A DNA stretch of 53,346 nucleotides from a virus (Duplodnaviria > Caudoviricetes): positions 1 through 53,346 of the IMG/VR virus record IMGVR_UViG_3300037187_000021, one strand, 5' to 3'. The notes beneath the pieces are model-generated. The model ran no database searches, was not told the DNA's origin, and was given only the letters and a program-made list of their open reading frames with translations. This document shows positions 34,724-53,346 of this stretch, in pieces (position 1 is the first letter of the stretch; each line of letters opens with the position of its first letter). Both the position numbers and the translations under genes were made by a program.

Positions 34724-34731
34724 GGGGCAAC

Positions 34732-34890: not shown

Positions 34891-35078
34891 TGATCGTCGA
34901 TTTCAAGTTTTCGCCAAAGCAGCGCGTGAAAATAATCGCATACGGATTGAATTGCGAAGGCCGCATTCATCGTTGCTATGTCAATTGCAGTGGCCATATT
35001 TTCTACGATGTCGAATATGCCCTTGATGGCGAAATTAAAGGTAAAGACTTTTTTGAAGACGATTTGGAGGCGCTGTGA
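34890..35078 (+). CDS. Hypothetical protein
   Basis: Coupled on both sides; KF...Q.V...G.I...Y.V.Y. Confidence 0.65.
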   Translation: MIVDFKFSPKQRVKIIAYGLNCEGRIHRCYVNCSGHIFYDVEYALDGEIKGKDFFEDDLEAL

Positions 35079-35374: not shown

Positions 35375-35375
35375 C

Positions 35376-36425
35376 ATGCCGGAAGATCAAAACAACGCAG
35401 GAGGAAACAATGCAGGTGGTCAGCCTCCAGCAGGAACGGGTACTCCGCCTGCTGGTTCAACTCAAACCCCGCCTCCGGCGAATCCGCCGTCTGGTGCGGG
35501 AGGCGCGGGAACTCAAACTCCTGCCACCGGCGGAACACAAACCGGTGACCAGAGCACGGGCACGATAGCCGGTGCGCCGGGCGCGAAAGATGCCGGAACG
35601 ACTCAAACCCCTCCGCCTACCGGCGAATGGGCCGCAGATTGGCGCCAGAAGGCTTCAGGCAACAATGCCGATCTTTTGAAGCTGGCCGAGCGCTACTCGA
35701 CGCCGGGCGATCTTTTGAATGCGCTGAACAACGCGCAGAAGAAAATCGACTCTGGCGCGATCAAGCAGCCTCTGCCAAAAGATGCAACGCCGGAGCAGCT
35801 CGCCGCTTATCGCAAGGAAAACGGCGTTCCCGAAGCAGCCGAAAAATACGATCTGGCGCTTCCGGATGGCCTGGTGATCGGAGAATCCGATAAGCCGATC
35901 ATTGACGGCATTCTCTCCGCCATGCATGGCAAGAATGCTTCGCAGGAGATGGTGACGGGCTTTCTCACCGAATATTACAAGCAGGAGAAGGTTTTTCAGG
36001 CAAAGCGGGAAACCGATATTGCCGATAACAAGCGCTCGACCGACGATCAGCTTCACCGCGAATGGGGAGATGAATATCGCGGCGAGATCAATCGCATCGA
36101 GAATCTTCTCAGCACGTTCTCGCCAGAGACGCAGGCCGTTATCCAATATGGCGTCGATGACAAGGGAATGCCGCTCTTGAATAATCCGCATTTCCTGAAA
36201 GACCTCGCGGTCAATGCGCGCATGGTCAATCCGGTAAGCACTATCCTGCCTGGCGCCGGTGCCGGGACGGCGACATCGGTCGATACCGAGATTGCGACCA
36301 TCGAAAAACGCATGGCCGAGGATCGCGACGGGTATTTCAAGGACAATGCCATGCAGGCGCGGTATCGCGATTTGCTTACATGGAAGGAAAATCAGAAGAC
36401 GCGCGCCGGTCAAAGAGCGGCTTAG
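35376..36425 (+). CDS. Capsid scaffolding protein
   Basis: G/P/T-rich N-terminus, G.PE..E.Y, L..EWG.EY, charged helical C-terminus; upstream of the capsid gene. Confidence 0.85.
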   Translation: MPEDQNNAGGNNAGGQPPAGTGTPPAGSTQTPPPANPPSGAGGAGTQTPATGGTQTGDQSTGTIAGAPGAKDAGTTQTPPPTGEWAADWRQKASGNNADLLKLAERYSTPGDLLNALNNAQKKIDSGAIKQPLPKDATPEQLAAYRKENGVPEAAEKYDLALPDGLVIGESDKPIIDGILSAMHGKNASQEMVTGFLTEYYKQEKVFQAKRETDIADNKRSTDDQLHREWGDEYRGEINRIENLLSTFSPETQAVIQYGVDDKGMPLLNNPHFLKDLAVNARMVNPVSTILPGAGAGTATSVDTEIATIEKRMAEDRDGYFKDNAMQARYRDLLTWKENQKTRAGQRAA

Positions 36426-36446
36426 TCTTTGATTTTATTTTATAAT

Positions 36447-36496
36447 AAACCCTCCCCGCCTCTCAACGATGCGCCTATGGGAGGGTTTTTCTTTTT
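36447..36496 (+). terminator. Intrinsic terminator
   Basis: AAACCCTCCC/GGGAGGGTTT stem then T-tract. Confidence 0.65.
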
Positions 36497-36718
36497 CTAT
36501 TGACGCAAGATGTTGATTTGATTTATGATGATGCCGTCTTTCAATAAACGTCACCCTCATTCGTGAGCGCGTTTTTTAAAGACGGCCGGCGGTTATGGCG
36601 CCTGGCAAGGATCGAATGGCCCCGCGAGGGACACCCCGGACGACCTTGTTTTGGACACCCCTGATACTGCGGATCAAAACGAAAATACCCGTTTTTTCCG
36701 TAACCCAGGGAGAGTCCT

Positions 36719-37552
36719 ATGGCTAATAACGCCCCACAAATTCAATACCGACAGGAATATATCAAAATGTTCGAGCAGCGCCAGTCGTTGCTCCGCAAAA
36801 CTGTCACGACCGAAGCCGTCGTCAAGGGCAACCAGGCCGTGTTTCTGGTCGCCGGTTCCAATCACGCCACCGCGACGACCCGCGGCACGAATGGCCTGAT
36901 TCCCGCGCGCGCCGATGACAACATCCAGAACACCGCGACGTTGCAGGAGTGGCACGATCTCGTGCGTAAGACCGGTTTCAACGTGTTCGAGTCGCAGGGC
37001 GACCAGCGCAAGATCATGCAGGAAAGCTCGCTCGGAGTCCTTAATCGTAAGATCGATCAGGATATTCTGGCGTCGCTGGCCTCGGCGACCCTCAGCACGG
37101 CACCGGCGCAGACTGCGTCTTTGGCGCTTGTTATGAAGGCTTACACCATCCTCGGCAACAACGAAGTGCCCATGGATGGCAACGTGAACGCCGTCATCAG
37201 CCCCGGATTCCACGCCTATCTCATGCAGGCGAAGGAATTCACGAACGTCAACTACATCAACGACAAGCCGTTCAGCAATCAGCCGACGATGTACCGGTGG
37301 GCGAACACGAACTTTATCGTTCATCCGAACATCGTCAACAAGGGCTTGAGCACTGAGCAGTGCTTTATGTACCACAAGGATTCGATTGGTCAGGCCGCGA
37401 ATGTCGGCGAGATCGACACGAAGATCGGGTACGATGATGAGCAGGACTACAGTTTCGCCCGCGCCACCATGTTCATGGGATCGAAGCAGTTGCAAAACAA
37501 CGGCCAGGTTTTAATGAATCACGATGGGTCGGCTTACGCCAGCTCCACGTAA
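36719..37552 (+). CDS. Major capsid protein
   Basis: QY..E....FEQ..S.LR.TV, .NRKIDQ.I, position after scaffold, strongly biased codons. Confidence 0.9.
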   Translation: MANNAPQIQYRQEYIKMFEQRQSLLRKTVTTEAVVKGNQAVFLVAGSNHATATTRGTNGLIPARADDNIQNTATLQEWHDLVRKTGFNVFESQGDQRKIMQESSLGVLNRKIDQDILASLASATLSTAPAQTASLALVMKAYTILGNNEVPMDGNVNAVISPGFHAYLMQAKEFTNVNYINDKPFSNQPTMYRWANTNFIVHPNIVNKGLSTEQCFMYHKDSIGQAANVGEIDTKIGYDDEQDYSFARATMFMGSKQLQNNGQVLMNHDGSAYASST

Positions 37553-37576
37553 TCAACTGAAACAGGAGAATGTAAA

Positions 37577-37855
37577 ATGGCATACGCAACCTCTAATCCG
37601 CCCCGCAAGATTGTCGGCGGCGGTATCGACAACAGCCAGGTGCCCAGCAATCTTTGGGTCTACGCTTCCACCGACAGTGATTCCACCGTCAAGGCTGAGG
37701 GTTATTTCAGCAACGGCATCGAGCTCGGTATGGCGGTTGGTGATCTCGTGTGGGTGTACGTCAGCGGAACGCCTGCATGGTATCTTCACTTTGTTGTCAG
37801 CGGCACGACCGATACGACAATCGAGCTCAATCAGACGCCGACCGAGTTGTCCTAA
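37577..37855 (+). CDS. Putative capsid decoration protein
   Basis: Y.STD...TV...GYF.N....M.VGD.V; co-transcribed with the capsid gene. Confidence 0.7.
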   Translation: MAYATSNPPRKIVGGGIDNSQVPSNLWVYASTDSDSTVKAEGYFSNGIELGMAVGDLVWVYVSGTPAWYLHFVVSGTTDTTIELNQTPTELS

Positions 37856-37885
37856 GATCAAGACCTCTATCTGCGAGAGAGAGTG

Positions 37886-37920
37886 AAGGGCACCAATCCG
37901 GCAGTTGGTGCCCTTTTTCT
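37886..37920 (+). terminator. Intrinsic terminator
   Basis: AAGGGCACCAA/TTGGTGCCCTT stem plus T-tract. Confidence 0.8.
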
Positions 37921-38015
37921 CAGGAAAAACCACCATCTATGGTAGGTGTTTCCAAATTTAACCTTCATGTGGTATGTTTTCGGCCTCGCCGTAACAACTC
38001 TCTCAGGAGAATCGC

Positions 38016-38534
38016 ATGACACAAGTTGCCGTAAAAGACGAAACAAAAGTCCCCGTTCAAGCCCCGCGTGCCGCCCCGCCGCCAGTGCCGGAAAAAAAGG
38101 TAATCCCGCTTAACCAGACACGCATGAAGGAAGCCGATTATGCGTGCGAACGCTGGTTCGTCAGCGTGCCGTCGGGAACAGCCGCCAAGGATCTTCTCGA
38201 TCCGACATACTGGCGCAACCTCGGCGATAAACTGAAGCCGCTTGCCCATGTCACCGCCGTCACCGAGGATTCCACGTGGCACGCCACATTCCTTGTCGTC
38301 GCCGCGCAACGGCTATGGGCGAAGCTGCACATGCTTTCGTACACTGATCTTTCGGCGACGAAAGCCGATACTCCTCTGACGGACGACCAGAATTATTCCG
38401 TCGAGTGGAAAGGGCCGCTTGGAAAATTCGCCGTTATCCGGAAAAGCGATGCTGCTACCCTGAAAGACGGCTTCACGACCATGCTTGAGGGACATCAGTG
38501 GCTGGACGGTCACCTTAAGGCAATGGGACGATAG
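38016..38534 (+). CDS. Hypothetical protein
   Basis: RBS AGGAG; 172 aa. Confidence 0.8.
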   Translation: MTQVAVKDETKVPVQAPRAAPPPVPEKKVIPLNQTRMKEADYACERWFVSVPSGTAAKDLLDPTYWRNLGDKLKPLAHVTAVTEDSTWHATFLVVAAQRLWAKLHMLSYTDLSATKADTPLTDDQNYSVEWKGPLGKFAVIRKSDAATLKDGFTTMLEGHQWLDGHLKAMGR

Positions 38535-38542
38535 GAAGAGAT

Positions 38543-39253
38543 ATGAGTCGCGCACGCATCATACAGGCGACAGAGATACTGCCGGCCCCCATCCCGAAAG
38601 CTAAGAATTTTAAAAATCTTAGCGGACAATTTTTCGGCGGTGTTTCTGTCGTTTGTTATGCTGGCTCTCAAAATCAGACTAGCATGTGGTACTGCCGTTG
38701 TGTGTGTGGTAATTTCTTTATTGCAATGTCTTCCAATTTGCAGCGCGGTAACACAACTAGTTGCGGATGCTTTCATTCTCAGCGTTGCTCTGAAGCCCAT
38801 AAGACACATGGTTTTACCAATAAACAGCGCGAAAGCGGCTACGGTTGTTGGGCCTCAATGAAGCAACGTTGTCTTGATCCGAATTCGATTTCATATCCTC
38901 ATTATGGAGCGCGCGGTATAAAGATTTGTGATCGTTGGTTAGAAAGCTTTAAAAATTTCTATGCCGACATGGGTCCGCGTCCTTCCCTTAAACATTCGAT
39001 TGAGCGTAAAAATAATGACGGAAATTATGAGCCTCAAAATTGTGTTTGGGCTACGGGACTTGAGCAGGCATTTACAAAATCAAATGTTATTCATGTCATG
39101 TTTGAAGGGAAAAAGGTTGTTCTCGCAGAAGCAATTCGTAAATCGGGGCTAACCAATGGTTGTGTTTATGCTCGTGTAGAACGCGGATGGAATCCGCAAG
39201 ACGCGATTGATACTCCTTTGATGCGGAGGAAAAGAAATGGCAACAATTTCTGA
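38543..39253 (+). CDS. HNH-type homing endonuclease
   Basis: W.C.C.CGN, SCGC, W..MK.RC, YG.RGIK.C.RW, SIER..NDGNYEP.NC.WAT; AT-richer than neighbours. Confidence 0.88.
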   Translation: MSRARIIQATEILPAPIPKAKNFKNLSGQFFGGVSVVCYAGSQNQTSMWYCRCVCGNFFIAMSSNLQRGNTTSCGCFHSQRCSEAHKTHGFTNKQRESGYGCWASMKQRCLDPNSISYPHYGARGIKICDRWLESFKNFYADMGPRPSLKHSIERKNNDGNYEPQNCVWATGLEQAFTKSNVIHVMFEGKKVVLAEAIRKSGLTNGCVYARVERGWNPQDAIDTPLMRRKRNGNNF

Positions 39254-39887
39254 AACGCAACTCGATATCTACAATCAAAGTCTTTTCATTTGTGAGGAAA
39301 GGGCGCTTGCGTCGACCATCGAAAATAGAAAGCCTCGCTACCTGCTTGATCAAATCTGGAACAACGGCGGCGTCGATGCCTGTCTTGAGGAATCGGACTG
39401 GCTCTTCGCGCGCCGCACCGAGCAGATCGTTTACGATCCCAGCATTCAACCCAGCTTCGGTTACATTCATGCTTTCAAAAAACCGGCGGACTGGCTGAGG
39501 ACATCGGCGGTCGCTTCCGATCCCTATTTTCAATCGCCGCTTGTCCAGTATTCAGATGAAGGCGGTTATTGGTGGGGCGACCTCGATCAGATTTTCGTCA
39601 AATACGTATCGAACGATCCGGCCTATGGCGGCAATTTCAGCATGTGGCCGGAGTCGTTCAAGCAATTCGTCGCGGCGCATTTCGCGTCAAAGATCATCGG
39701 GTCGCTGACGCATTCGAAAAGCAAGATCGACGACGTGAAAGAAGAGCGCCGCAAGCTCGTGACGGCCGCGCGCGGCAAGGACGCCATGGGCGATCCGCCG
39801 GGCTTCTTCGGGCGCGGACAGCTTTCGCGCGCGCGTCAGGGCTTGTATTTCGGTCGACCGGGCAGAGTAGACGCTGGATGGTACTGA
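39237..39887 (+). CDS. Tail adaptor (tail tubular protein A, gp11-like)
   Basis: I.N..L, L....W.FA, .P.D.LR, .Y....D...P..F. Confidence 0.82.
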   Translation: MATISETQLDIYNQSLFICEERALASTIENRKPRYLLDQIWNNGGVDACLEESDWLFARRTEQIVYDPSIQPSFGYIHAFKKPADWLRTSAVASDPYFQSPLVQYSDEGGYWWGDLDQIFVKYVSNDPAYGGNFSMWPESFKQFVAAHFASKIIGSLTHSKSKIDDVKEERRKLVTAARGKDAMGDPPGFFGRGQLSRARQGLYFGRPGRVDAGWY

Positions 39888-39888
39888 T

Positions 39889-42800
39889 ATGGGTCAGGCA
39901 AATGCCCTTCTCTATGCCTTTAACCGAGGAGTTATTAGCCCCTTAGCCTTGTCGCGCACCGATCTCAAGGTGCAGGCGCTTTCCGCTGAAATTCAAACAA
40001 ACTGGATGCTGCGCGAATTGGGCAGCATGATGCTGCGGCCCGGCACGCAGTATGTGGACGGCATTTACGACAACAATCAGGCCGTGCATGTGCCTTTCAT
40101 CAAAGCCCTGACGGACACGGCGGTTATCGAGTTGACGAACGGGCTTATGCGCGTGCGCGTCGGCGAAGCGATCATCACGCGACCAACGGTGGCGACGACG
40201 GTCACGAACGGCAATTTTACCAGCAACCTGAATAATTGGGTCAGTTCGGACGAAAGTGGTGCTCTTTCCCAATGGGCCGCCGGGCCGTATATGTCGTTGA
40301 CGGGAACGGAGGGTGGAAGCCGCGCTATTCGAAGTCAGGCGGTCGCGCTTGACGCGGGAGATTCCGGCGTTCAGCACGCGTTGCGCATCGTTATATCCAA
40401 GGGATATGTCACCTTGCGCGTTGGTACCGCGCTTGGCGATGACAGCTATATCAATGAAGTGTTGCTGGCGCCGGGTATATATTCGCTGGCCTTCACGCCG
40501 ACCGGTACTTTCTATATTCAGCTCACGGCCAACACGACATACGCCAGTTGGGTTTCTTCGGTGAATGTCGAGGCCGCCGGCGCGATGACGATTCCGGTAC
40601 CGTGGCTTCTGGCCGATTTATCGAATGTCAGGTCGGATCAATCGGAAGACGAAGTGTATGTCGCCTGCGCGGGTTATCAGCAGTACAAAATCATGCGTAT
40701 CGGCAATCCACAATCATGGGGGATTGCGACGTATCGCGCCAATGATGGGCCTTTCAATCTCATCAACACCGATTTATCGACGACGATGTATGCCGGTGCG
40801 CTGACGGGCGACACGACGCTTAACAGTTCGATTCCGTATTTTAAGCCGGACCATGTTGGCTGTCTTTTCCGTCTTACATCGACATCGCAAAATACGAACG
40901 ACACTATCGGCGGAAATAATCAGGCGACAAATTATATCGAAATCAGCGGTGTCGGCAGTACGCGGCAGTTTGCTTTTCAGATAACCGGCACATGGGTCGG
41001 AACGATTTATCTTGAACAGTCGGTTGGCGCGCCCGGCACATGGACTCCCGTTGCAAATTATACATCAAACCAAAATACGACATATAACGACGGCCTCGAT
41101 AATCAGATTATTTACTACCGCTTTAATTTTGAAAGCTCATATACGTCCGGTTCGGCGATGGTCGCCATGCAGTTTTCCAGCGGCGGTATCACCGGCATAT
41201 GCCGCGTGACGGGCTATGTCAGCAATAAGCAGGTTAATGTAGAGGTTCTCAAAGCATTTGGCGCTGTGGGCGCGGGGAATGTCGAGGCGACCGGCTATGT
41301 CACATTCTCAGTTAACCCGAGCAACAATGACACCGTTACGCTCAATGGCGTGGCATGGAAATTTGTGACGAGCGGTGCATCCGGCGCTGAAACTAATATT
41401 CAGGGTTCGCTTGTCGCAACGCTGGCGCAGCTTGCCAGCGATCTGAATGCGTCCGGAAACAGCAGCCTGAATGTCGCTTCATATTCGGCATCGCCGACGA
41501 TTCTTTATATCACATATAAGACCGCTGGAACCGCCGGGAACGCTTATACGCTTGCGGCAAGCGCGGCCACGCCAAGCGGCGCCACTCTAACTGGCGGATC
41601 GGCGACGGGGGGCACGAGCAGCACGACGAGCCTTTGGGCACAAGGCCAATGGTCGCTGATCGATGGCTATCCGACGGCGGACTGCTTTTACGAAGGACGC
41701 CTATGGTTCTTCGGCAATGATAATATCGACGGTTCCGTCTCCGATGCATTCCAGAGTTTCGATGACACCGTGACAGGCGATAGCGGCCCTATCCTGCGCT
41801 CGATCGGTTCCGGCCCCGTCGAGAATATCTGCTGGGCGCTTGCTCTCCAGCATCTTCTCATGGGCGGCGAAATGAAGGAATTTTCGGTTACGTCCTCCTA
41901 CCTAAACGAAGCGCTGACGCCTACCGATAACAACATCAAGTCGCCGTCGACGCGGGGCTCGGCGCGGGTTGCCGGAGTGCAGATCGACACCAACGGCATT
42001 TTCGTGCAGCGCGGCGATCCCGATAATGGCAATGTCGCGGGCGTGCGCCTTATCCAGATGTCGTATCAAGGCAATTATACGCCGGTCGATTACAGCAGCG
42101 AAGATTTAAGCATTCTGTCCCCTGAAATCATTTCCGCCGGTATCGTGCGCCTCGCGGTGCAACGCAAGATCGACACGCGCATCCATTGTCTTCTGGCCAA
42201 TGGCAATGTCGCTGTTTGCGTCTATGATCCTATCGAAAAACTCAAGGCATTCGTTCTTGTCGAAATGACGAACGGTTTTGTCGAGGATATTTTCATCATG
42301 CCAGGTTTTATCGAGGACAAAGTCTACTATGCGGTGCGCCGGACGATCAACAATGAGACGGTGCGCTATCTGGAACGGTGGGCGCTCGAAAGTGAATGTC
42401 AGGGGGGGGCTGTCAATAAAAATGTCGATAGCCATGTGATTTTCAATAATGGCTCTCCAACTGCGACAATCACTGGCTTGAAATCGCTTATAGGTCAAAA
42501 CGTCGTCGCGTGGGCCGACGGCATTGCATATGATGGCCCCTTTAATGTTGCACAGATAAATTCAGGAACATTTGAAACTACCTTGACCAACGGTGGTAGT
42601 GGATCGGCAAATGCAGCTTATATCGATGAACCATTAAGCGGCGGCAGCGGGACAGGAGCAACTGCTAATCTTTATACGAATGCTAGTGGCGCTGTTTATA
42701 AATATCAGATTACAAATTATGGCACTGGCTATCAGGTCAATGATGTTCTTGGGCAGGGATTTATATCTGGGTTGCAAATTACGATCAGTTCGCTTGATGT

Positions 42801-43197
42801 CGACGGTGAAATTACGTTGCCGGTCGCCGTATCTCAGGGAGCGGTCGGCCTTCCCTATACGGCGCAATTCCAGAGCGCGAAGCTGGCCTATGCCGCGCAG
42901 GCCGGAACGGCGATCAACATGGTGAAGAGCGTCGATCATCTCGGCCTTGTACTGGCGAATACGCATTATCAGGGCCTGCAATACGGCCCGAATTTCAACG
43001 ACCTGGATAATCTGCCCCTGGTGGAAAGAGGGGCCGTGACGCCGGCAAATACGGTGTGGGAAGCTTATGACGAGGACACGTTTGAATTTATGGGCGATTG
43101 GAACCCTGATTCTCGCATATGCTTGCAGGCACAGGCGCCGCGGCCCTGCACGATTTTGTCGGCGGTGATCGGTTTGGAAACGGTGGAGCGTGTATGA
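39889..43197 (+). CDS. Tail nozzle (tail tubular protein B, gp12-like) with inserted domains
   Basis: F..G.ISP....R.DL, G....RPGT, YP....FYEGRL.F, V.R.IN....RYLE, VGLPY, P.P.TIL. Confidence 0.88.
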   Translation: MGQANALLYAFNRGVISPLALSRTDLKVQALSAEIQTNWMLRELGSMMLRPGTQYVDGIYDNNQAVHVPFIKALTDTAVIELTNGLMRVRVGEAIITRPTVATTVTNGNFTSNLNNWVSSDESGALSQWAAGPYMSLTGTEGGSRAIRSQAVALDAGDSGVQHALRIVISKGYVTLRVGTALGDDSYINEVLLAPGIYSLAFTPTGTFYIQLTANTTYASWVSSVNVEAAGAMTIPVPWLLADLSNVRSDQSEDEVYVACAGYQQYKIMRIGNPQSWGIATYRANDGPFNLINTDLSTTMYAGALTGDTTLNSSIPYFKPDHVGCLFRLTSTSQNTNDTIGGNNQATNYIEISGVGSTRQFAFQITGTWVGTIYLEQSVGAPGTWTPVANYTSNQNTTYNDGLDNQIIYYRFNFESSYTSGSAMVAMQFSSGGITGICRVTGYVSNKQVNVEVLKAFGAVGAGNVEATGYVTFSVNPSNNDTVTLNGVAWKFVTSGASGAETNIQGSLVATLAQLASDLNASGNSSLNVASYSASPTILYITYKTAGTAGNAYTLAASAATPSGATLTGGSATGGTSSTTSLWAQGQWSLIDGYPTADCFYEGRLWFFGNDNIDGSVSDAFQSFDDTVTGDSGPILRSIGSGPVENICWALALQHLLMGGEMKEFSVTSSYLNEALTPTDNNIKSPSTRGSARVAGVQIDTNGIFVQRGDPDNGNVAGVRLIQMSYQGNYTPVDYSSEDLSILSPEIISAGIVRLAVQRKIDTRIHCLLANGNVAVCVYDPIEKLKAFVLVEMTNGFVEDIFIMPGFIEDKVYYAVRRTINNETVRYLERWALESECQGGAVNKNVDSHVIFNNGSPTATITGLKSLIGQNVVAWADGIAYDGPFNVAQINSGTFETTLTNGGSGSANAAYIDEPLSGGSGTGATANLYTNASGAVYKYQITNYGTGYQVNDVLGQGFISGLQITISSLDVDGEITLPVAVSQGAVGLPYTAQFQSAKLAYAAQAGTAINMVKSVDHLGLVLANTHYQGLQYGPNFNDLDNLPLVERGAVTPANTVWEAYDEDTFEFMGDWNPDSRICLQAQAPRPCTILSAVIGLETVERV

Positions 43198-43562
43198 TCA
43201 AAGACGTCGAAATCAGAAGGGCGACTGCGGACGATATCCGGCTCTTTTATCCGGAAGGATCGCCGCTGACATGCTACGCATGGATAGCCCTTTACAAAGG
43301 TCAACCCGCATGTCTGGCGGGCGTGACGTTGCAAAAAAGAGCCATGTGCGTGGCGTTTTGCGATATGAAACCAGATATTAACGCTCCCAAGATAACCATC
43401 TGGCGCGCGGCGAAGGTCATGTTCGGCGAGATGAAAAAGCTGGGTTTGCCGATGGTCGCGGTTTATTGTGAGCCGAGTCCAGCAGGACAGGCTTTCGTGA
43501 AGCGGCTGGGGTTTGAGTATCTTTACACGCGCGATGGGCAAGAGGTGTTCAAGTGTCATTGA
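43194..43562 (+). CDS. GNAT-like protein (T7 gp13 position)
   Basis: IRRAT..D start and F...LGF end; follows the nozzle. Confidence 0.7.
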   Translation: MIKDVEIRRATADDIRLFYPEGSPLTCYAWIALYKGQPACLAGVTLQKRAMCVAFCDMKPDINAPKITIWRAAKVMFGEMKKLGLPMVAVYCEPSPAGQAFVKRLGFEYLYTRDGQEVFKCH

Positions 43563-44017
43563 TTATCAAAAAATGCAGCGTTGCCCTTGTCGAGGAGCAA
43601 TCTAATTTTTCAGATATGCTTAAAGAGTATGAGGAAGAAAGTGTCATCGAGGGTGCACCGCCAATACAAGCAAAGATGGAAATGTATCATGAACTTGAAA
43701 AGAGCGGCAATTTTCAAGTCTTTGGAGCTTTTGTGTATGACCAACTGGTCGGGTTCGTTACGGTCTTGGTGGCTGTACTCCCCAAGCGCGGCGTCCTCAT
43801 GGGCATCATTGAAAGTTATTTCGTCATTTCAGCATTTAGGGGCGGCACAAATGCCGGGAAAAAACTTCTGGATGAAGCAAAAAAATATGCCAAGGAAAGG
43901 GGCGCATCCTGTGTTTTGGTGACAGCTATCACAGGTAGCGATTTGGAAAAAGTTATGCCTCATTGGGGAGGGAAAGAAGTAAACAAGGTTTTTTTGGTGA
44001 GCTTGAAAGATGTCTGA
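43553..44017 (+). CDS. GNAT acetyltransferase
   Basis: LVGF, YFV...FRG...G..LL..A...AK..GA acetyl-CoA motif. Confidence 0.82.
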   Translation: MSLIIKKCSVALVEEQSNFSDMLKEYEEESVIEGAPPIQAKMEMYHELEKSGNFQVFGAFVYDQLVGFVTVLVAVLPKRGVLMGIIESYFVISAFRGGTNAGKKLLDEAKKYAKERGASCVLVTAITGSDLEKVMPHWGGKEVNKVFLVSLKDV

Positions 44018-44471
44018 ATTATCTGTCATCGAAAAACCGATTACCTCCATGACGGAAGTGGAGATTGACAAAGTGCGTCAACTCGAAAATGAACTTCTGA
44101 AAATGCCGCAAGTCAAAATCGCAACGCAGCATATCATTCATGCGGGGATGTACGCGCGAACGATCATTGTTCCGAAGGGAGTCGTTTTGACTGGTGCGCT
44201 GATGAAAATTCCGACGCTCCTTATCATACAGGGCGACTTTCTTCTTTTCGCCGGAGATAAAACGATTACATTAAACGGTTATCATATATTTACAGGAGCG
44301 GCCATGCGTAAGCAGGCTGGCGTTGCTTTGAGCGATACCTTCGTCACGATGATATTTCCGACCAAGGTAAAAACGGTCAAGGAGGCTGAGGAAGAATTTA
44401 CCGATGAAGCTGCGGGACTTTTTTCGCGCTACGATGACGCGATAAACCACGTCAAGATAACGGAGGAATAA
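44010..44471 (+). CDS. Cupin-like protein
   Basis: H....GMYAR.I..PKG....G...K......I..G. Confidence 0.72.
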   Translation: MSELSVIEKPITSMTEVEIDKVRQLENELLKMPQVKIATQHIIHAGMYARTIIVPKGVVLTGALMKIPTLLIIQGDFLLFAGDKTITLNGYHIFTGAAMRKQAGVALSDTFVTMIFPTKVKTVKEAEEEFTDEAAGLFSRYDDAINHVKITEE

Positions 44472-45017
44472 ATGTCCGGCGGCATGAGCACTGCAACAAT
44501 GGTTGGAATCGGCATGACGATTGCCAGTACGGCAGTTACGGCGCTGGCTAGCGCGCAACAGGGGCGCGCTCAACAAGTAGCAATGAATTATCAGGCCGCG
44601 CAGGAAGACCAAAACGCCAATAATGCGACTGCCAGCGGCCAGCGCGCCATGATCGAGGCAAACAAAAAAACAGCGCTTGTCGAATCAAATGCAGTGGCAG
44701 CAGGCGCAGGGTCAGGGGGCACATCAACCGATCCTACGGTTTCTGCCGATCTGGATCTGATCGGCGCCGAGGGCAATTACCGGGCGCAGACGGCGCTTTA
44801 TGATGGCAACGCCAAGGCTCAGGCGCTCCGCAATCAAGCGTCTGCCGATGTCTTTCAGGGCAATATAGATAATCAGGCGGGACAGATAAAGGCCGGTACA
44901 TCGATGCTTGCCGGTGCGACGTCGCTATTCAATAAATATGGGACGTCGTTCAATTCTGATGATCCCTCTTTTGCAGATTCAATGGGCGGTAATATGGCCA
45001 TTGCTGCATTGCAATGA
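44472..45017 (+). CDS. Internal virion/ejection protein (gp14-like)
   Basis: Hydrophobic N-terminus, A/Q/G/N-rich helices. Confidence 0.75.
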   Translation: MSGGMSTATMVGIGMTIASTAVTALASAQQGRAQQVAMNYQAAQEDQNANNATASGQRAMIEANKKTALVESNAVAAGAGSGGTSTDPTVSADLDLIGAEGNYRAQTALYDGNAKAQALRNQASADVFQGNIDNQAGQIKAGTSMLAGATSLFNKYGTSFNSDDPSFADSMGGNMAIAALQ

Positions 45018-45028
45018 GAAGGTGATTT

Positions 45029-47200
45029 ATGGCTGGCGTTAAACTCCCCGATTATACCGCGTTAGGCCCGGCTCCCACGCCCGAGGCTCCGGATTCCGTT
45101 GCCCGTTACGATCCGAGCGCGCCGTATCAGGCAATGGCGGGACTTGGGGATCAGGCTCAGAAAAGCGTTAGCGATATTACCGACCTGTATAACAAGTCAC
45201 AGATAAACGATGTTTTCGCCAATCAATATGCGCCAGCCGTTCGGCAAGCCGCGACCGATTTTTACAGCCTTCAAGGCAAAGCGGCAATGGATGCTTTCCC
45301 CGCGTTTCAGCAAAAACTGGCTTCGCTGAGAGACCAATCTGCCAGTCAGTTTAACGGCGAATATCAGCTTCAGTTTAACGAGATGGCGAACAGCAAAGCC
45401 GAGAATGAATTGTGGCGCGCTGGAATGCACGCCGGGGAGCAGGGCAGGCAGTACATAGCTGCGACACAGGACGCTGTTGTCTCAAACCATCTTACGAATA
45501 TACAAAATGATCCGAGTACCTACGACACTGAATTGCAACATGGGAAAGTTGCCATTCAGAGTTATGGCGAACAGCCGTCCGTTTCTCAATCGCCGGATGA
45601 GATTCAAAAACATCTTAGTGATTTTGAACAAAGAGCGGCAGACGCAAAGTACACCACATGGATGCAGACTGATCCAATGGCCGCCTATGCCGACTATCAA
45701 AAAAACAAAGATACGCTTCCCGGCTACTCTCAGGTTAAGCTCGATGCGCAGTTCAAGCCATTGATCCGTGAAAATGCGGCTGACACGTTTACGAATAACC
45801 TGATGACCCAGATCAGCCAGAATTATGCGGCGAATGTTTCGCCGAACAGCGGAAAGCCCTTTCAGTTTACGATGGATCACGAAGGGGGATATGTCTCGAA
45901 CGATAGCGGCAAAGGGCCGACTAATTTCGGCATCAATCAGGAGGCGAACCCTGATGTCGATGTTCAAAATCTTACGCAGGATCAGGCGCGCAGCATTATT
46001 CAGACGAAGTACGCCAATGCGGTAGGCGCGGATAAAATGTCTCCCGCAATGGCCGAGGTCGCGGTCGATAGCGCCGTTAATATGGGTGTCGCAAAAACAC
46101 AAACTTTGCTTGCGCAAGCAAATAACGATCCTCAAAAACTGATCGATCTTCGCCGTCAGGAATATCAAAGGCTGGCGACCGCCGATCCTGCGAAATATGG
46201 GCCTTCGCTTGCCGGATGGAATGCGCGGCTTGACGATCTGCAAAACACGCTGCCGTCCCTTACGACAAACACGGCTCCGACTTCCGGCTATCAGACGCCG
46301 ACCGATTACATGGCGGCGCACAGAGAAGACTTATTGAATCAGGCGACGACATGGGCGCAGACAAATTTTCCGGACGATCCGCATATGGCGACCACCATGC
46401 GTGAGCGCGTCAACAATATGATAACCGGAAACGTACAGGCACAGACCGCGCAATATAAGCAGGATAACCAAACCGTTATGCGCGCCATCAATGGCGAAAT
46501 GTCGAACGGACAACCGCCGATGACCTTTCAGCAGCTTCGTGCCGTTCCGGGTGTCGCGCCTGTACTTGATCGTGTCGCCGTGCAGGATTCGAAATTCTAT
46601 GACGGTGTTGACAGGATGATCGGGCAAGTGCAGGCGCGGAACGTAACGACGAATAGCCCCAATGGATTCGATACGATCATGAGGGCGACGGAGCCGGACG
46701 ATGGTGCGCATCCGAATGCGATAGTCACTCAGGATCATCTTGATAAATTGCTCGGTAAAAGCGATGGCACCGGCATCAACATGAAGGACTATAACGACAC
46801 GAAACCCCTTATAGAATCATCGCAACCTTGGAAAGATTTTGTCGCGCAAGGCATGAACAATGTCGCGACGGCAAACGGCAATCTCGACGGCCAAGGGCAG
46901 CAGCGCGCGGTGGCGTGGTACAATCAGGCTTCGCAAGCGTATTCCAAAAACAAGGCTCTTGGCGATAAGGCTCTTCCGGATGCCGATCTTATTCAGAACA
47001 TAACCGATTCCGCTTTACCTCATCAGCCATCGCGCATGGAGCAGATTTCAAATTGGGCGAAGTCGTTAGGAGGTGGAGCACAAAATACCGCTACACCGCA
47101 GATTCCTGTTTTCTCCAATCCGACGGACCCGGAGTTTACAAAACTGCCTACCGGTTCGCAGTTCAAAACTTCTGACGGACAATTGAGGATCAAACAATAA
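45029..47200 (+). CDS. Internal virion protein with GH108-like lysozyme domain
   Basis: HEGGYV.D...PTNFGI.Q, LT...A..I....Y, D.AVN.G, GW..R. Confidence 0.85.
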   Translation: MAGVKLPDYTALGPAPTPEAPDSVARYDPSAPYQAMAGLGDQAQKSVSDITDLYNKSQINDVFANQYAPAVRQAATDFYSLQGKAAMDAFPAFQQKLASLRDQSASQFNGEYQLQFNEMANSKAENELWRAGMHAGEQGRQYIAATQDAVVSNHLTNIQNDPSTYDTELQHGKVAIQSYGEQPSVSQSPDEIQKHLSDFEQRAADAKYTTWMQTDPMAAYADYQKNKDTLPGYSQVKLDAQFKPLIRENAADTFTNNLMTQISQNYAANVSPNSGKPFQFTMDHEGGYVSNDSGKGPTNFGINQEANPDVDVQNLTQDQARSIIQTKYANAVGADKMSPAMAEVAVDSAVNMGVAKTQTLLAQANNDPQKLIDLRRQEYQRLATADPAKYGPSLAGWNARLDDLQNTLPSLTTNTAPTSGYQTPTDYMAAHREDLLNQATTWAQTNFPDDPHMATTMRERVNNMITGNVQAQTAQYKQDNQTVMRAINGEMSNGQPPMTFQQLRAVPGVAPVLDRVAVQDSKFYDGVDRMIGQVQARNVTTNSPNGFDTIMRATEPDDGAHPNAIVTQDHLDKLLGKSDGTGINMKDYNDTKPLIESSQPWKDFVAQGMNNVATANGNLDGQGQQRAVAWYNQASQAYSKNKALGDKALPDADLIQNITDSALPHQPSRMEQISNWAKSLGGGAQNTATPQIPVFSNPTDPEFTKLPTGSQFKTSDGQLRIKQ

Positions 47201-50200
47201 TGGACGGATGGGATGCAGTTTCGGCACCGGCTCCCGCACCAACCCCGGCTCCTCAACCCGGCAATTCATGGGATGCCGTTTCTGCGCCTGTAAAACCACC
47301 AGCTTTGCCGGACACGGCGCCTGTCACGGCTATGGTGCAACAGAATCTCGCCGCTCAACCCGCGCCCACTGATAATGCGCAGCCGCAAACCGATGCGCAG
47401 AAAATAGATACTGGTTTAGGTTTTCCAGCTACCACCGCATTAAAAGGCGGCGATGGTACATTGCCTCCCGATCAACGCACCGGACTTGTGCAAGCCTATA
47501 AGAATGGCACGGCGTCAACGGCTGGCGATTATATGCAGAGCGTGTTGCCTGCGGCGGCTCATGCGGCAGTAAGTCCGTGGCTCAATGTGGAAGAGCGCAC
47601 AGGGCGTGGTATTGTTAACACCGCAGGCTTGGCTGTCGGGTTTATACCGGATTCGATAGCGAGGTTGATGTATACGGGAGCGCAAGCTACGGGGATTATT
47701 TCAAAGGATATTTCAGTCGATGAGATGCCGACCGTAAGCGACGCATTCAAAAAAATTGGTGAGGCTGTTTTCCCAGAAGGTTCCCCTCAAAATCAAGTTG
47801 CGGCAAAGGTAGATCAGCTTGCTCCTATGGTTGGTTCAGTCGCTTTAGGGGGAGGAGCAACGCTCCCGGTCGCGGCATGGCGCTCTATGTATATGGGGGT
47901 CGCAGGACTGCTTGGCGGCGAAGCGCAGCAAAAAGCAATCGAATGGACAAAAGAGAATTTCCCTAATCAACCGTTCATTCAAGAAAGCGTATCTCAGCTT
48001 GTAAATTTCAGCGCCATGCTCGGCGTCGGAGTAGCGGGGCACGCATTAGAACCAGCAATTCCCGGCCATGCGGCATTGGCGCCCACCGTTGGCGAGGCAA
48101 TCGGCAAGCCAGATGACGCCGTGACGCCGCAGGATATTAATCAGCAGATCGCCAAGGGATTTGATGCGGCGAATCCGAAAGCGCAGGATTTTCAGGATGT
48201 TGCGAAAGTGATGGATTCTCACCCATTACCGGAAACAGGATTCACACGCTTTTATCACGGCGGCTCTCCATATGAAGGAGGTGAGCGTTGGTTAACTCCT
48301 GATCTTGAATATGCAAAAGGATACGCAGAAAAAAATAATAATGAAGATGCTTTCGTTCATTATGTCGATATATCAAATGACTCGCCATATCTAACTAAAA
48401 TTTTTGATGATACTGGTACTAATGTTAAATCGCCTTTTGCTCATTTTAATGCACCAGAAGAGATAGCTAAAAATTTAAAACCTTATACTGCTATTGATAC
48501 GGCCAACACTCTTCACCAAACCTATGCCGAAACCGGCGTGCATCCAGATCAGGTTTTCGAGGATGCGAAAGAAAATCCGAATATCGCGGCGGATATTCAG
48601 GCTGGAAAAGTGCCGGATGCTTATGCGGATTTAAAAGCGAATGCGGCTGGCGAAGTTCCTATTCCTAAAGGCGAGGGACCGCTTCAGTGGGATGAGCATG
48701 GCGTTCCGTTCCGTGAACCTATACCGGATCAACCGTTGCAGGCGAAGATTCCACCTGAACCGACGCGGCTTCTGACATGGATAAAACAGCAGGGCGGCAT
48801 CAATGACGAAACCGGCGATGTCGCGGCGAGTATCGGTGCCGCTAAAGAACGTCCCGGACTTATCAGCAAAAACGGCATGGCACCTGATGATCTGGCCTTG
48901 CGTGCGCAGGAAGCCAGATTTTTGCCTGAAGGCGAGAGGCCGGACACAAATGCGCTCTATGACGCGATTCGTGAAGATCATAACGGCACACCACAGTATT
49001 CAGAACGCGACACCAATGCCGCGCTCGATTATCAAACCGCATTAAATCGCAATGCGGAAATTGACAGGATTTCAAACGAGACAGGTATCGACACGAAAGG
49101 CGAAACGCATAATTCGTTTTGGGATAAAGTTGCCGATCATATGTCGCAGGAAAAGCAAGCTGAAGAAGTGCAGAGTATGACAGAGGCGCATGTCTCTGCG
49201 CTAAAAGAGGCTGAAGATGCTGCTAAGGCATATATGGAAAGCCGTGGCGAAGCATGGGAACCGAACGCCGAAAATCGAGGTCAACCCGCAACATTGGAGG
49301 AATTGGAAAATGAACGCGCAAAGGAAAATGCTGTTAGAGGGACTGAAACGCTCCCGCCAAGGGATGAGGGATCAAGACCTGCCGCCGGAGATCAGGGCGA
49401 AGTACAAGACGGCAGCGGACAAGGCGGACGCGGCTCTGAGCCTCCAGGAGGCGGTGAACCGCCGGAAAGCGCAGGATTCGGGGAACCAAAAGAAGGCCCG
49501 TTAAGCCGTCCTCCGGCCTTAAAAGACCCGCGCATGTTTGAAGATCAGCTTCATCAGCTTTCTACAAACATGACGGCTGATAAACTTGACATCATGAAGC
49601 GCGCCGAAGCGATGCCTGACCTTCCAAGCGAAGTTTGGGAGAAGCTGTACGCCTATGATGAAAACGATCCAAATGCGAAACTCACGCCTAAAGAAAAAGA
49701 CATATACGATGAGCATATAAAACCACTGGTAGAGTTGGACGATAAGCTCTATCAGCGACTTGAGGGTCTAGTAGGGTCGGTAGAACTCGGGGAAGACGAA
49801 GGGTTTTTTCAACGGGGTTACACGCCGCGTTATGCCAAAGGCCGCACACGTTCCTTCGGCGAAATGCTGGAGCAAGCAAAGAATGGCATTGTGGCGAGAT
49901 TCGGTGGCGCTGCTGGCCGTTCTATGCGCAAGACGGTCGATGCGCAAAAATCACGTCGCTATTATAACGCGGTCGATCCCGCGACTGGCGAAAAGAAACT
50001 TATCTATATCGACAAAGAGCATAACGTCGTTGCCTTTGATAAAGACGGGAAGGGATCGAAGATCGGGACGTTTCGCGCGGGTCAGAAGCTTGCGCCCGGT
50101 TCGGAAGTCGAAATTAAAGCTCCCGACCTTCTTGGCAAACTTCGCGGCAAGAGTTCGACATGGACGCTTGAAACGGCTCTGACAAGAGAAATCGAGGAAA

Positions 50201-51672
50201 ATACCAATCAGCGTTATCTAAAAAATGTTGCGGCAAACAGGCTCGATCTGACAGCAAAGCTCCAAGCCGCCGTCCGCAATGCCGAGTTTATCGAAGCGAT
50301 GAAATCATCGCCTGAATTTGACGATGTTGCGGTTCCTGTCGGGGGTCACAATAGCGTGATACCTGAAACCGACGGTCGCGCGTGGCGCACACCGAAGATA
50401 TTGCAATTCCGCAATTATTATATGGAGCCGAAACTCGCGGACGCTCTTGATGACTATGCGAGAAATACGCAACTGGACGGCGTTGGAGAATTTCTCAATA
50501 AGGTCGGTCGCCGGATGATGAACGTCATGTTTCTTAACCCGTTGCCACATATCGACAACATCTTCAATCACATGATTGTGCAGGGCGGCCTTGTCGGCAA
50601 TCTGTATCATCTGCCGTCAACGGCAATGAGTCTGCTGAAATCATTTAAGGATGTGTACAACGTCTCCGACGATTATATGGATAATCTGCGCGCCGGGGCT
50701 TCCCTTAAACATGCCGAGATGCTCACCAGCGATTTACACGCGAAGCTGATAGAAAAACTTGGGATCGACGCGCAGAAAGACCCTAAATCTTGGGACGCAA
50801 TCGCGCGCGCCTTCGGATACAATGACACCGGCACCATGCTGGGCCGCTTGGCTGGTGTGGGACAACGCGCCATGTGGTTCGCGTCTGACGTTATGACGAA
50901 TGCGCGCATGGAGCAGCAAAGAGAATTCGGTGAAACGAGGCCGGAGGCTATTGCCAATGTAGAAAAGCATATGCCGAATTATCGCGTTCCCGGACAGGTT
51001 CTCGGCAGTCGCGGACTGGCGCAGTTCTTGAAAAATCCCGTCACCACCATGTTTGGGAAATATGATTTTGGCCGCATAAAAAGTTATGCGTATTTGCTTA
51101 AGGAAGGGTTCGGCAAAGACGCAACCCTTATGGATCGCGCGAAATCTTTTGATCGCATGGCGATGATCGGCATGTACATGTACGTCATCTATCCAGCGTT
51201 GGATAAAGTATGGCAGGAAATTACGGGAAATAAAAACGCCAGCGTTGTGCGCTCAGGCGCAACGACGATTCCGCAGATTGTTTCAGATGTTGCAAGCGGA
51301 AAGAAAAGCGTCGTCGATGCGGTTCAGTCTGCGCTTCCCATCGGGATTCCGTTGCAATTTGCTTCCGACTATCAGACAGGAAGATACGCATGGAATGGAG
51401 AGCCGATCATCAATCAATCGGACGTCAATAATCTCCGGCCTCAAGCGGGTTATGATGCCCTCAATTACCTTGGCAGCAAACTGTCTTATATCGGGCAAGT
51501 CGGAAATGTCGCGCAGGGCAAGATGACCGGAAGCCAGATGGGATACGGGGCGCTTGGTGTCAAAACTCCCACGGACAAGCAAATACAGGAACGTCAGTTC
51601 TATAAGAATCGAGAGGATAAAAAGGCCGCACAAAGAGCCACAAGGCTCGAAAGGCAGCGACAAGGCGAATAG
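47200..51672 (+). CDS. Large internal virion/ejection protein (gp16 position), polyvalent-protein-like
   Basis: 1490 aa, last gene of the ejection block; helical with hydrophobic segments. Confidence 0.82.
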   Translation: MDGWDAVSAPAPAPTPAPQPGNSWDAVSAPVKPPALPDTAPVTAMVQQNLAAQPAPTDNAQPQTDAQKIDTGLGFPATTALKGGDGTLPPDQRTGLVQAYKNGTASTAGDYMQSVLPAAAHAAVSPWLNVEERTGRGIVNTAGLAVGFIPDSIARLMYTGAQATGIISKDISVDEMPTVSDAFKKIGEAVFPEGSPQNQVAAKVDQLAPMVGSVALGGGATLPVAAWRSMYMGVAGLLGGEAQQKAIEWTKENFPNQPFIQESVSQLVNFSAMLGVGVAGHALEPAIPGHAALAPTVGEAIGKPDDAVTPQDINQQIAKGFDAANPKAQDFQDVAKVMDSHPLPETGFTRFYHGGSPYEGGERWLTPDLEYAKGYAEKNNNEDAFVHYVDISNDSPYLTKIFDDTGTNVKSPFAHFNAPEEIAKNLKPYTAIDTANTLHQTYAETGVHPDQVFEDAKENPNIAADIQAGKVPDAYADLKANAAGEVPIPKGEGPLQWDEHGVPFREPIPDQPLQAKIPPEPTRLLTWIKQQGGINDETGDVAASIGAAKERPGLISKNGMAPDDLALRAQEARFLPEGERPDTNALYDAIREDHNGTPQYSERDTNAALDYQTALNRNAEIDRISNETGIDTKGETHNSFWDKVADHMSQEKQAEEVQSMTEAHVSALKEAEDAAKAYMESRGEAWEPNAENRGQPATLEELENERAKENAVRGTETLPPRDEGSRPAAGDQGEVQDGSGQGGRGSEPPGGGEPPESAGFGEPKEGPLSRPPALKDPRMFEDQLHQLSTNMTADKLDIMKRAEAMPDLPSEVWEKLYAYDENDPNAKLTPKEKDIYDEHIKPLVELDDKLYQRLEGLVGSVELGEDEGFFQRGYTPRYAKGRTRSFGEMLEQAKNGIVARFGGAAGRSMRKTVDAQKSRRYYNAVDPATGEKKLIYIDKEHNVVAFDKDGKGSKIGTFRAGQKLAPGSEVEIKAPDLLGKLRGKSSTWTLETALTREIEENTNQRYLKNVAANRLDLTAKLQAAVRNAEFIEAMKSSPEFDDVAVPVGGHNSVIPETDGRAWRTPKILQFRNYYMEPKLADALDDYARNTQLDGVGEFLNKVGRRMMNVMFLNPLPHIDNIFNHMIVQGGLVGNLYHLPSTAMSLLKSFKDVYNVSDDYMDNLRAGASLKHAEMLTSDLHAKLIEKLGIDAQKDPKSWDAIARAFGYNDTGTMLGRLAGVGQRAMWFASDVMTNARMEQQREFGETRPEAIANVEKHMPNYRVPGQVLGSRGLAQFLKNPVTTMFGKYDFGRIKSYAYLLKEGFGKDATLMDRAKSFDRMAMIGMYMYVIYPALDKVWQEITGNKNASVVRSGATTIPQIVSDVASGKKSVVDAVQSALPIGIPLQFASDYQTGRYAWNGEPIINQSDVNNLRPQAGYDALNYLGSKLSYIGQVGNVAQGKMTGSQMGYGALGVKTPTDKQIQERQFYKNREDKKAAQRATRLERQRQGE

Positions 51673-51740
51673 ACATTAACCTTCCTTAACCTACCATCCC
51701 TTGTTGTCTTTACGGCCCTTTAATGGTAAATGGGATTCCC

Positions 51741-53346
51741 ATGAAGCTCTGGCCACGCATAGCCCTTCTTGGGCTCGTTTTCAGCCTCCTTGCGGCGACC
51801 TTTACCGCGTCCGCGCAAACGACCTATACGGACCGTTTTAGCGGTTCCGTCATTGCGACAATCGGCAAGCAGCCCGTCGTCGCGGCGACCACAGCGCCGA
51901 TCTCGCTTGCCTACAGCCAGGTCATCGACGGCGTCACGGTCAGCGACCATACGAACGACGATACCGGCAAAGCGCCCGACCGTGTGCTGGTCAAGAATCA
52001 GGCCGACGAAACCCAGAACGGCATCTACACGGTCAGCAACACCGGGCCATGGACGTACACGCAGGATTTCAGCGGCAACAGTGGCGTCGTCAATGGGCAA
52101 CTTATCATCGTCGCGGGTGGCAACAGCCAGACCGGCCTATGGGAGCTGACAACCGCAGATCCGATATGCGTCGGTAATTCGCCATCGATTGGTCCGGTTT
52201 CCGGCTGCACGCCGAGCGAAATCACTTTTGCGCAATACGAGATTCCTTTCGCGTCAATCGGCCTGACGAACGGCGATATCTTTGTCGGCAATGCCTCGAA
52301 CATGGCTGCCGAAGTCGCTATGTCGGGTGATTGCACCATCGCCAATACGGGCGCCATAACCTGTCTGGATTCGAATGGCTCGCCGATATTGACGGCTGCC
52401 GATACCGCGACCCTGACGAATAAAACCTATGATACCGCCGGGACGGGGAATGTCTTTAAGATCAATGGCCAGCAGGTTTCTTCTGTCAGCGGCAATACCA
52501 ACAAGGTCGCCACGGCGTCAGGCTCGTTTACTTCCGGCGATTGCCTTGAGATAAATTCGAGCGGCAATGTCGTCGATGCTGGAGGCGCATGTACGACCGG
52601 CGGCGGCGGTGGTACCGTAACGTCCTCGACTCAGTATCAGGTAGGTGCCTATCCGTCGACTGGCACCGTCATCACTGGCTTGGCTACCCTCACCACCGAT
52701 GCCCATGGCGTCCTCAATATCGCGGCGGGAACGATCACCAGCAACGACCCGGCCCTTGACGTCACGCAAACATGGAATGCTTCCGGCACGACGTTCAATG
52801 GCATTCTCGAAAACATCACCAACAGCGCCAGCGCCGCGGCATCTCTCCTTCTGAATTTGGAGGTCGGCGGCACGCCTGAATTCAGCATCAGCAAGGCCGG
52901 GGCGGTGACGGTTGGTTCGTGGGCCGGGACTATCATTCCGATTGCCGAAGGTGGAACGGGCGTCAGCCTTGCGGCGACAGGCGGAACGTCCGAAGTCCTG
53001 AAACAGGTCAGCTCTGGCGCGAACGTCACGGTCGGCCAGCTTGCCTGTTCCGATTTATCGAACGCCGCGACAAGCTGCGCGACAGATGCGACGGATGCCT
53101 CGAATCTTTCGAGCGGCACCGTGCCGACCGCGCGGCTTGGTTCGGGGACGGCATCATCGTCGACCGTGCTGTATGGCGATCAGACATATAAGGCCGCGCC
53201 ATCGGGTGCTTTGGTTCTGCTTGATACGATCAATGCGAGTAATGCTTCTCAGGTTACATTCAGTTCAACTTATATCACCAGCGCCTATAACAAATATGTG
53301 ATTGAGTTTGACAGTGTTACGCAAGCTTCTCCGTCTACTGCCATTT
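51741..53346 (+). CDS. Main tail fibre with signal peptide (3'-truncated, absent from ORF track)
   Basis: Open for 535 codons to the window end; MKLWPRIALLGLVFSLLAATFTASA|Q then KQPVVAATTAPISL..Q.IDGV...DRVLVKNQ...QNGIY.V...W fibre N-terminal domain; GGTG fibre motif. Confidence 0.88.
   Translation, partial: MKLWPRIALLGLVFSLLAATFTASAQTTYTDRFSGSVIATIGKQPVVAATTAPISLAYSQVIDGVTVSDHTNDDTGKAPDRVLVKNQADETQNGIYTVSNTGPWTYTQDFSGNSGVVNGQLIIVAGGNSQTGLWELTTADPICVGNSPSIGPVSGCTPSEITFAQYEIPFASIGLTNGDIFVGNASNMAAEVAMSGDCTIANTGAITCLDSNGSPILTAADTATLTNKTYDTAGTGNVFKINGQQVSSVSGNTNKVATASGSFTSGDCLEINSSGNVVDAGGACTTGGGGGTVTSSTQYQVGAYPSTGTVITGLATLTTDAHGVLNIAAGTITSNDPALDVTQTWNASGTTFNGILENITNSASAAASLLLNLEVGGTPEFSISKAGAVTVGSWAGTIIPIAEGGTGVSLAATGGTSEVLKQVSSGANVTVGQLACSDLSNAATSCATDATDASNLSSGTVPTARLGSGTASSSTVLYGDQTYKAAPSGALVLLDTINASNASQVTFSSTYITSAYNKYVIEFDSVTQASPSTAI

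Follow-up and report, generated by a model that had tools for sequence, protein, structure and literature searches.

Where in the infected cell is the tail fibre of a short-tailed phage completed? Tailed-phage assembly is taught as cytoplasmic, and the question is raised by a gene at the end of the viral record IMGVR_UViG_3300037187_000021 (Duplodnaviria; Caudoviricetes), in which a predicted secretory presequence stands directly before a domain known from phage fibres. The IMG/VR record, classed as linear and given a CheckV completeness of 100%, is 53346 bases long and was analysed whole (the window). We hold with good confidence that this gene encodes the primary fibre of the virion. The reading we prefer, to which we give slightly less than an even chance, is that the fibre passes out of the cytoplasm, loses its presequence, folds in the periplasm and is joined to particles at lysis; the export is predicted from sequence, and the attachment after export is what we infer.

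The fibre frame occupies positions 51741..53345 of the + strand (535 codons) and, as the initial annotation had said, runs off the record without meeting a stop. Its first 25 codons have a basic n-region, an apolar h-region shorter than a membrane span and small residues at −3 and −1, so that the 25-residue signal peptide proposed there holds up (K2 and R6, the apolar core, then A-S-A before Q26). With Q rather than Cys at +1 and a single arginine in the n-region, it is neither of the lipoprotein nor of the twin-arginine translocation (Tat) type. Signal calls here and below combine a hydropathy and charge heuristic of our own with homologue comparison, and were not made by a predictor of the SignalP type; judged in this way, the presequence is very probably a real, cleavable signal. 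Translation cannot start past the hydrophobic stretch, because the first 110 codons hold an in-frame ATG, GTG or TTG at codon 1 and at codon 82 only, the latter a GTG within the conserved DRVLVK stretch, and the other near-start codons among codons 2–81 are confined to ATA, ATT and ATC. Upstream, an in-frame ATG at 51723 (18 nucleotides, nt, before the assigned start) would add six residues to the presequence, and the upstream in-frame stop of the frame ends at 51689.

Homologues with and without the presequence meet at the predicted cleavage site. A count of the two kinds, which the initial annotation had proposed as a check, was made on 211 homologues (73 from one search and the rest from the best 150 of a HMMER scan, hence top-scoring proteins and not a random sample). 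A signal followed by the domain was called in 30 by the heuristic and in 29 by eye (P0184 being a false call), as against 88 in which the domain begins at residue 2–8 with no presequence; in 92 others the domain is internal, and in one the signal lies far from it. Where the signal-bearing proteins have their predicted cleavage site, the alignment places the initiator methionine of the signal-free ones, and the predicted mature end in the window, Q-T-T-Y-T-D-R-F..., coincides within one or two residues with the start of the signal-free relatives. Across 26 signal-bearing homologues with presequences of 22 to 45 residues, position −1 is A in 16, S in eight and G in two, position −3 is A in 18, S in four, T in three and L in one, and +1 is Q in 16, the site having been placed by a rule of our own that may err by two or three residues in single cases.

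The signal also follows descent. In a quick IQ-TREE phylogeny of the domain (113 rows and 116 columns, with the 92 internal-domain proteins and some others excluded), a split with 99% support in the Shimodaira–Hasegawa-like approximate likelihood ratio test (SH-aLRT) separates 36 rows (26 with a signal, 10 without) from 77 rows of which one has a signal. The label requires a minimum of six changes on this tree, and the starred branches force at least three of them; shuffling the labels gave a mean of 24.4 changes, with none of 500 shuffles as low as six. Every basal line on the 36-row side bears the signal, which suggests that it is old and has been maintained with few losses. One loss was verified on the DNA of L003, a relative whose upstream protein is 82% identical to that of the window over its C-terminal 499 residues: the fibre gene in the same slot has an AGGAG site and an ATG at 10001, and a stop lies in frame at 9971–9973. 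Most members of the clade come from Logan contigs. A viral-contig scan with P0001 gave one unrelated locus; one with the clade alignment gave 80 loci, and every one of the 17 N-termini read there either lacked a signal or belonged to a protein with an internal domain. Nine N-terminal fragments matched nothing in metagenomes, and a scan with an internal-protein alignment returned the L003 record only.

The domain behind the presequence, of which the motif quoted in the initial annotation makes up residues 46–96, is a widespread one. Six PHROG families match residues 25–157 (phrog_27782, 16867, 14570, 24595, 17264 and 11518, E 1.8e-13 to 5.5e-06), two of them carrying an annotation (virion structural protein in one, tail fiber protein in the other), and a HMMER search of 1.84 billion cluster representatives found the domain in 6819 proteins at E ≤ 0.001, including very long proteins, many with several internal copies. 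A profile search against PDB sequences returned two entries, 9nx3_A (E 5.4e-14) and 9efk_AE (E 7.5e-07), the second being the fibre chain of Legionella phage LME-1. An AlphaFold2 model of residues 1–300, built on a 113-row alignment, has a helix for the presequence, low confidence over residues 27–40 and a beta-rich domain with a predicted local distance difference test (pLDDT) score of 93–98 over residues 41–110; Foldseek matched this model to no PDB entry at E ≤ 0.001, and a wide fold search with VIA-align reached a best Z of 3.6, giving no clear fold.

Is this mainly a domain of secreted cellular proteins, in which case its place behind a signal would say little about phages? Among cultured phages, 57 of 50,697 records carry it, all at below 60% identity and the 40 listed at below 40%, the genes over it being labelled tail protein, tail fiber, tail spike, head or capsid decoration, or virion structural protein. 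Bacterial genomes gave 55 loci in many phyla, in two settings: signal-free forms with the domain at the N-terminus, in Alphaproteobacteria and others, and giant secreted proteins with the domain deep within, in Planctomycetes and a Kaiserbacteria genome. None of the 15 N-termini read among the 55 loci was of the signal-bearing type. In five planctomycete loci (L050, L063, L070, L072 and L079) the domain is found more than 600 residues into giant proteins whose N-termini are rich in arginine. Cellular secreted proteins thus use the module too; taken together, the cultured-phage annotations and the bacterial settings identify it as a common phage structural module and not mainly a cellular secreted one, and the possibility that it belongs chiefly to non-phage secreted proteins was not borne out.

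The genomic slot and the copy number point to the primary fibre. The order adaptor, nozzle, internal proteins, fibre is that of T7-like short-tailed phages, and the gene lies directly after the internal core proteins, in the window and in relatives alike, so the initial annotation was right to place it in the T7 gp17 position behind the large ejection protein (a 1490-amino-acid (aa) ORF, that is, open reading frame, at 47200..51672, with a gap of 68 nt to the fibre frame). The fibres of T7-like phages (T7 gp17, LME-1) have no signal peptide and are assembled in the cytoplasm, and the window protein also differs from T7 in having no T7-type fibre N-terminal domain by Pfam, a search of which gave no family at E ≤ 1. 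In LME-1 the trimeric fibres are described as contacting adaptor and nozzle, as in T7 (PMC12407071).

Family-wide evidence came from the adaptor, for which we found 89 near-length homologues and 192 IMG/VR relatives. Ten near-complete relatives, several with terminal repeats, were chosen by adaptor, and each of the ten has exactly one match to the fibre domain, as does the window, which argues for a single core fibre and against an added, dispensable moron. In this family the domain is, as the initial annotation had it, an ordinary fibre N-terminus. In seven of the nine regions read nothing stands between the large internal protein and the fibre, and in the other two one or two small genes do. 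N-termini were read in nine of the ten relatives, all but G208. One, G202, has a signal-bearing fibre, complete at 543 aa; after it come a small membrane protein, a protein of 1015 aa that also bears a signal, and an endolysin. The other eight have signal-free fibres that begin with the domain, and in the signal-free relatives lysis genes mostly come next after the fibre. The initial annotation had gone further and taken an exported primary fibre to favour attachment after export over a host-adhesin moron; the core, single-copy fibre stands, while export, cleavage and attachment remain at the level of prediction.

How might such a fibre reach the virion? Under the reading that we prefer, it would be made as a secretory precursor, with the Sec presequence directly before the canonical fibre N-terminus. 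SecYEG would carry the unfolded chain into the periplasm, signal peptidase I would remove the presequence to expose Q26 as the mature, canonical N-terminus, and the chain would trimerise in the periplasm, where its paired cysteines would form disulfide loops. Fibreless particles, assembled in the cytoplasm, would meet these fibres only once the lysis proteins have removed the barrier between the compartments, and docking on the adaptor–nozzle region, by the N-terminal arm and the domain, would come next; five signal-bearing neighbours (see below) would be accessory fibres or tips that take this route too. Extended to the lineage, the proposal is of short-tailed phages that finish their virions outside the cytoplasm, with primary and accessory fibre or tip proteins exported by Sec, oxidatively folded in the periplasm and added at lysis, and this wider form we put forward with more reserve still.

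Parts of this route have counterparts elsewhere. P22 heads can be completed in vitro by free tailspike, so that the last attachment of a spike is possible outside the living cell; this speaks for the feasibility of late fibre attachment, although the P22 tailspike is a cytoplasmic protein with no export step. The mosaic adhesive trimer (MAT) fibres of Bdellovibrio, which carry an S74 chaperone domain and are described as able to fold after Sec export (PMC10769870), speak likewise for the folding of a fibre after export. Their architecture is matched by the window fibre in its presequence (residues 1–25) and beta-rich domain (26–160), and by its neighbour at 4872..6290 in signal, fibre repeats and S74 domain, but MAT fibres are chromosomal in a predatory bacterium and stand on its surface, whereas the window gene lies in a phage structural module. 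Identity of the domain with the MAT N-domain was considered and rejected: a single-sequence query matched 4 of 201 Bdellovibrionota genomes, once each, where a MAT N-domain would be expected in many copies per predator genome. In the MAT-like Bacteriovoracaceae protein of locus L088, another domain follows the signal and the window's domain lies at about 318–400. The trimeric, phage-tailspike-like glycan hydrolase WceF of Pantoea stewartii is described as exported by an N-terminal signal (PMC7949094); it differs in being a host enzyme exported folded under a Tat signal, while the window presequence, without a twin arginine, belongs to a phage gene.

The arrangement of cysteines is suggestive of disulfide loops that would form outside the cytoplasm. 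Close pairs (no more than 25 residues apart) occur in 22 of 26 signal-bearing proteins, in 4 of the 10 signal-free members of the same clade and in 34 of 82 outside it, and the number of cysteines is even in 17/26 signal-bearing as against 3/10 signal-free clade members; cysteine density was rejected as a signature, only pairing and parity differing. Residues ~165–215 form a module of their own, which in L003 directly follows a signal peptide in a separate 95-aa ORF (12087..12374, signal peptide plus cysteine-pair module), an arrangement that suggests shuffling of modules between the genes of exported fibres.

The record break falls within the gene. A 5'-open frame at the other end of the record probably holds the C-terminal part of the same fibre (Table 1), residues 22–99 of it aligning to the C-terminus of the fibre homologue P0019 (375–451, E 2e-08). 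The record would then be a permuted genome cut within the fibre gene, with some 30 codons missing between its ends; assemblies commonly break in this way where the tip regions vary. An exact search with the last 43 nt, made to bridge the ends, gave no match.

In the circular order the fibre is followed by a block rich in further signals. Signal-like ORFs number 6 of 42 in the window, and all six are among the nine genes of the block 51741..6290 as against none of the 33 elsewhere. The last of them, 4872..6290, combines its signal and fibre repeats with a Peptidase_S74 chaperone domain, and its PHROG matches are to tailspikes and fibres. Two others, 892..1386 and 4369..4872, are paralogues from a small protein family with 94 homologues, in which all 24 rows displayed of 48 aligned bear a signal. 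The small protein is modelled (pLDDT 90) as a jelly-roll sandwich, with a weak resemblance to phage cement proteins (best 7eel_H, E 5.3e-05, template-modelling (TM) score 0.40), and no match to it was found in cultured phages. In other lineages the small family marks runs of three to six signal-bearing genes on viral contigs of 15–110 kb (L282–L306); ten large signal-bearing neighbours were scanned, four matching tail, fibre or spike PHROGs, one a virion structural protein and five nothing.

Several observations weigh against the preferred reading and should be set beside it. To our knowledge, no tailed phage completes its virion with a Sec-exported fibre, and a literature search, conducted mostly at abstract level, turned up no description of a tailed phage with a signal-bearing virion fibre. 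The export is predicted from the heuristic and the homologue comparison, and the ATG at 51741, unlike the starts of many window genes, has no clear Shine–Dalgarno site. Relatives without a signal make do in this slot, and fibre function therefore does not depend on export; lysis would dilute the fibres. The tail-docking role of the domain is not established either, because in the LME-1 fibre (9efk_AE, PDB 9EFK) it starts at about residue 308, away from the capsid-proximal end, and because 9nx3_A, which carries the same domain, is a capsid decoration protein; we infer that the domain is the tail-binding part from position alone, and a complex prediction of the adaptor with fibre residues 26–175 gave an interaction score (ipSAE) of 0.00 in two runs made without controls, a result that tells neither for nor against docking. 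Finally, the classes show no difference in cysteine density (Mann–Whitney p 0.28 and 0.12), and the Fisher p values for the arrangement of cysteines (0.014 and 0.0001) overstate its significance because the compared proteins are related.

In the strongest rival account the exported protein works in the envelope of the infected cell and has no place in the virion. It might mask or cut the receptor polysaccharide while this is being assembled in the periplasm, serve in superinfection exclusion or form a surface fibre like a MAT adhesin, while the virion would bind its host by another part, such as the unusually long nozzle of 1102 aa. Exported look-alikes of fibres and tailspikes with cellular roles do exist (the MAT fibres and WceF), the 4872..6290 product resembles the C-terminal part of a MAT-like protein of Bacteriovoracaceae (E 5e-24), and the six signal-bearing genes form one block, with comparable runs of three to six in other viral contigs. 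In L003, L291, L296 and L299, moreover, the first fibre is signal-free and the genes after it bear signals, which suggests a separate function for the exported set. Set against this, the window and G202 would be left with no signal-free copy of a fibre that is single-copy in every relative examined. The signal has been gained or lost within one orthologous fibre lineage and in one genomic slot, a pattern easier to explain if the role of the mature protein is constant. We accordingly regard a non-virion role as unlikely, though it is the alternative to be taken most seriously.

A split location fares worse. Here export would be partial, with a cytoplasmic fraction, or an isoform from a non-canonical start, building the virion and the exported fraction serving a second role; this would reconcile a single-copy primary fibre with the picture of an exported module, and the translation signals before the ATG are weak. 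The absence of ATG, GTG and TTG from codons 2–81 speaks against an internal start, as does the lack of a conserved internal methionine past the cleavage site in most of the signal-bearing homologues (20 proteins viewed), and a precursor staying in the cytoplasm would keep an apolar extension of 25 residues on its presumed docking end, which together make this account improbable. That the hydrophobic N-terminus is inactive as an export signal in the natural host, being an uncleaved anchor or an inert extension, is very improbable given a short apolar run, small −3 and −1 residues kept in 26 homologues despite sequence divergence, signal-free relatives that begin at the predicted cleavage point, and the clustering of the feature in six neighbouring genes.

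Table 1. Features of the fibre gene, the genes that follow it in circular order and the structural module of the window.
Feature	Position	Strand	Basis or remark
Sec / signal peptidase I presequence (predicted), codons 1–25	51741..51815	+	K2, R6, apolar core, A-S-A before Q26
Mature N-terminal arm (residues 26–42, nearly invariant D31-R32) and beta-rich domain to residue 160	51816..52220	+	PHROG and PDB-sequence matches, AlphaFold2
Shaft with close cysteine pairs	52221..53210	+	C198/C208, C268/C284, C436/C446; C143/C156 just upstream
Start of C-terminal tip domain	53211..53346	+	residues 491–534 align weakly to P0019 278–320; cut by record end
C-terminal 101 residues of the same fibre gene (probable)	2..307	+	5'-open frame; phrog_14820
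Signal-bearing ORF, 103 aa	341..652	+	heuristic
Signal-bearing ORF, 164 aa	892..1386	+	heuristic
Signal-free ORF within the block, coiled-coil-like	1402..2016	+	heuristic
Signal-free ORF within the block	2020..2361	+	heuristic
Signal-bearing ORF, 671 aa	2354..4369	+	heuristic
Signal-bearing ORF, 167 aa	4369..4872	+	heuristic
Signal-bearing ORF, 472 aa	4872..6290	+	heuristic
Large terminase	30717	+	structural module of short-tailed phage
Portal	32636	+	structural module
Major head protein	36719	+	structural module
Adaptor	39237..39887	+	phrog_394; with nozzle, presumed fibre docking site
Nozzle, 1102 aa	39889..43197	+	phrog_376
Three internal/ejection-type proteins, 181 + 723 + 1490 aa	44472..51672	+	called by position and size; directly upstream of fibre gene

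The phage has no close relative in culture: its portal is less than 30% identical to those of cultured phages, the best matches being Pelagibacter podophages. The 723-aa internal-type protein matches phrog_315, a lysis-type hydrolase, and an HNH endonuclease ORF lies between the head genes and the adaptor (38543..39253; phrog_374, E 3.9e-59). The start of a cell-wall-hydrolase-like ORF (9258..9770) is overlapped by a class 3 lipase/esterase-like ORF (8699..9337; Pfam Lipase_3, phrog_21992), which may assist lysis through an action on envelope lipids; no clear spanin was identified in the window. A pentapeptide-repeat protein is encoded on the minus strand (24896..25741; Pfam E 4.2e-37), and the AAQIA-repeat ORF that lies opposite (25163..25792) is probably a shadow of it. 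No tRNA genes were found in the window.

As far as the literature searched mostly at abstract level extends, export of the tail fibre, probable here, is a route undescribed for tailed phages; under the lineage-wide proposal, the fact that tail-like genes with signals also stand in runs on viral contigs of unrelated origin suggests that it is widespread and has been overlooked. If the preferred reading is correct, a conserved export signal on the one fibre present in every relative would mean that part of the virion matures in another compartment than the rest. This would affect how receptor-binding proteins fold (through disulfides and periplasmic chaperones) and when particles become infective, would bear on whether intracellular defence sensors see the fibre at all, and would place the engineered production of such fibres in the periplasm and not in the cytoplasm. 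A connection is made, too, between the fibres of phages and fibre adhesins that bacteria secrete, the MAT family among them, and signal-bearing receptor-binding proteins of phages may at present be discarded by gene-callers, or mislabelled by annotators as secreted proteins of host type.

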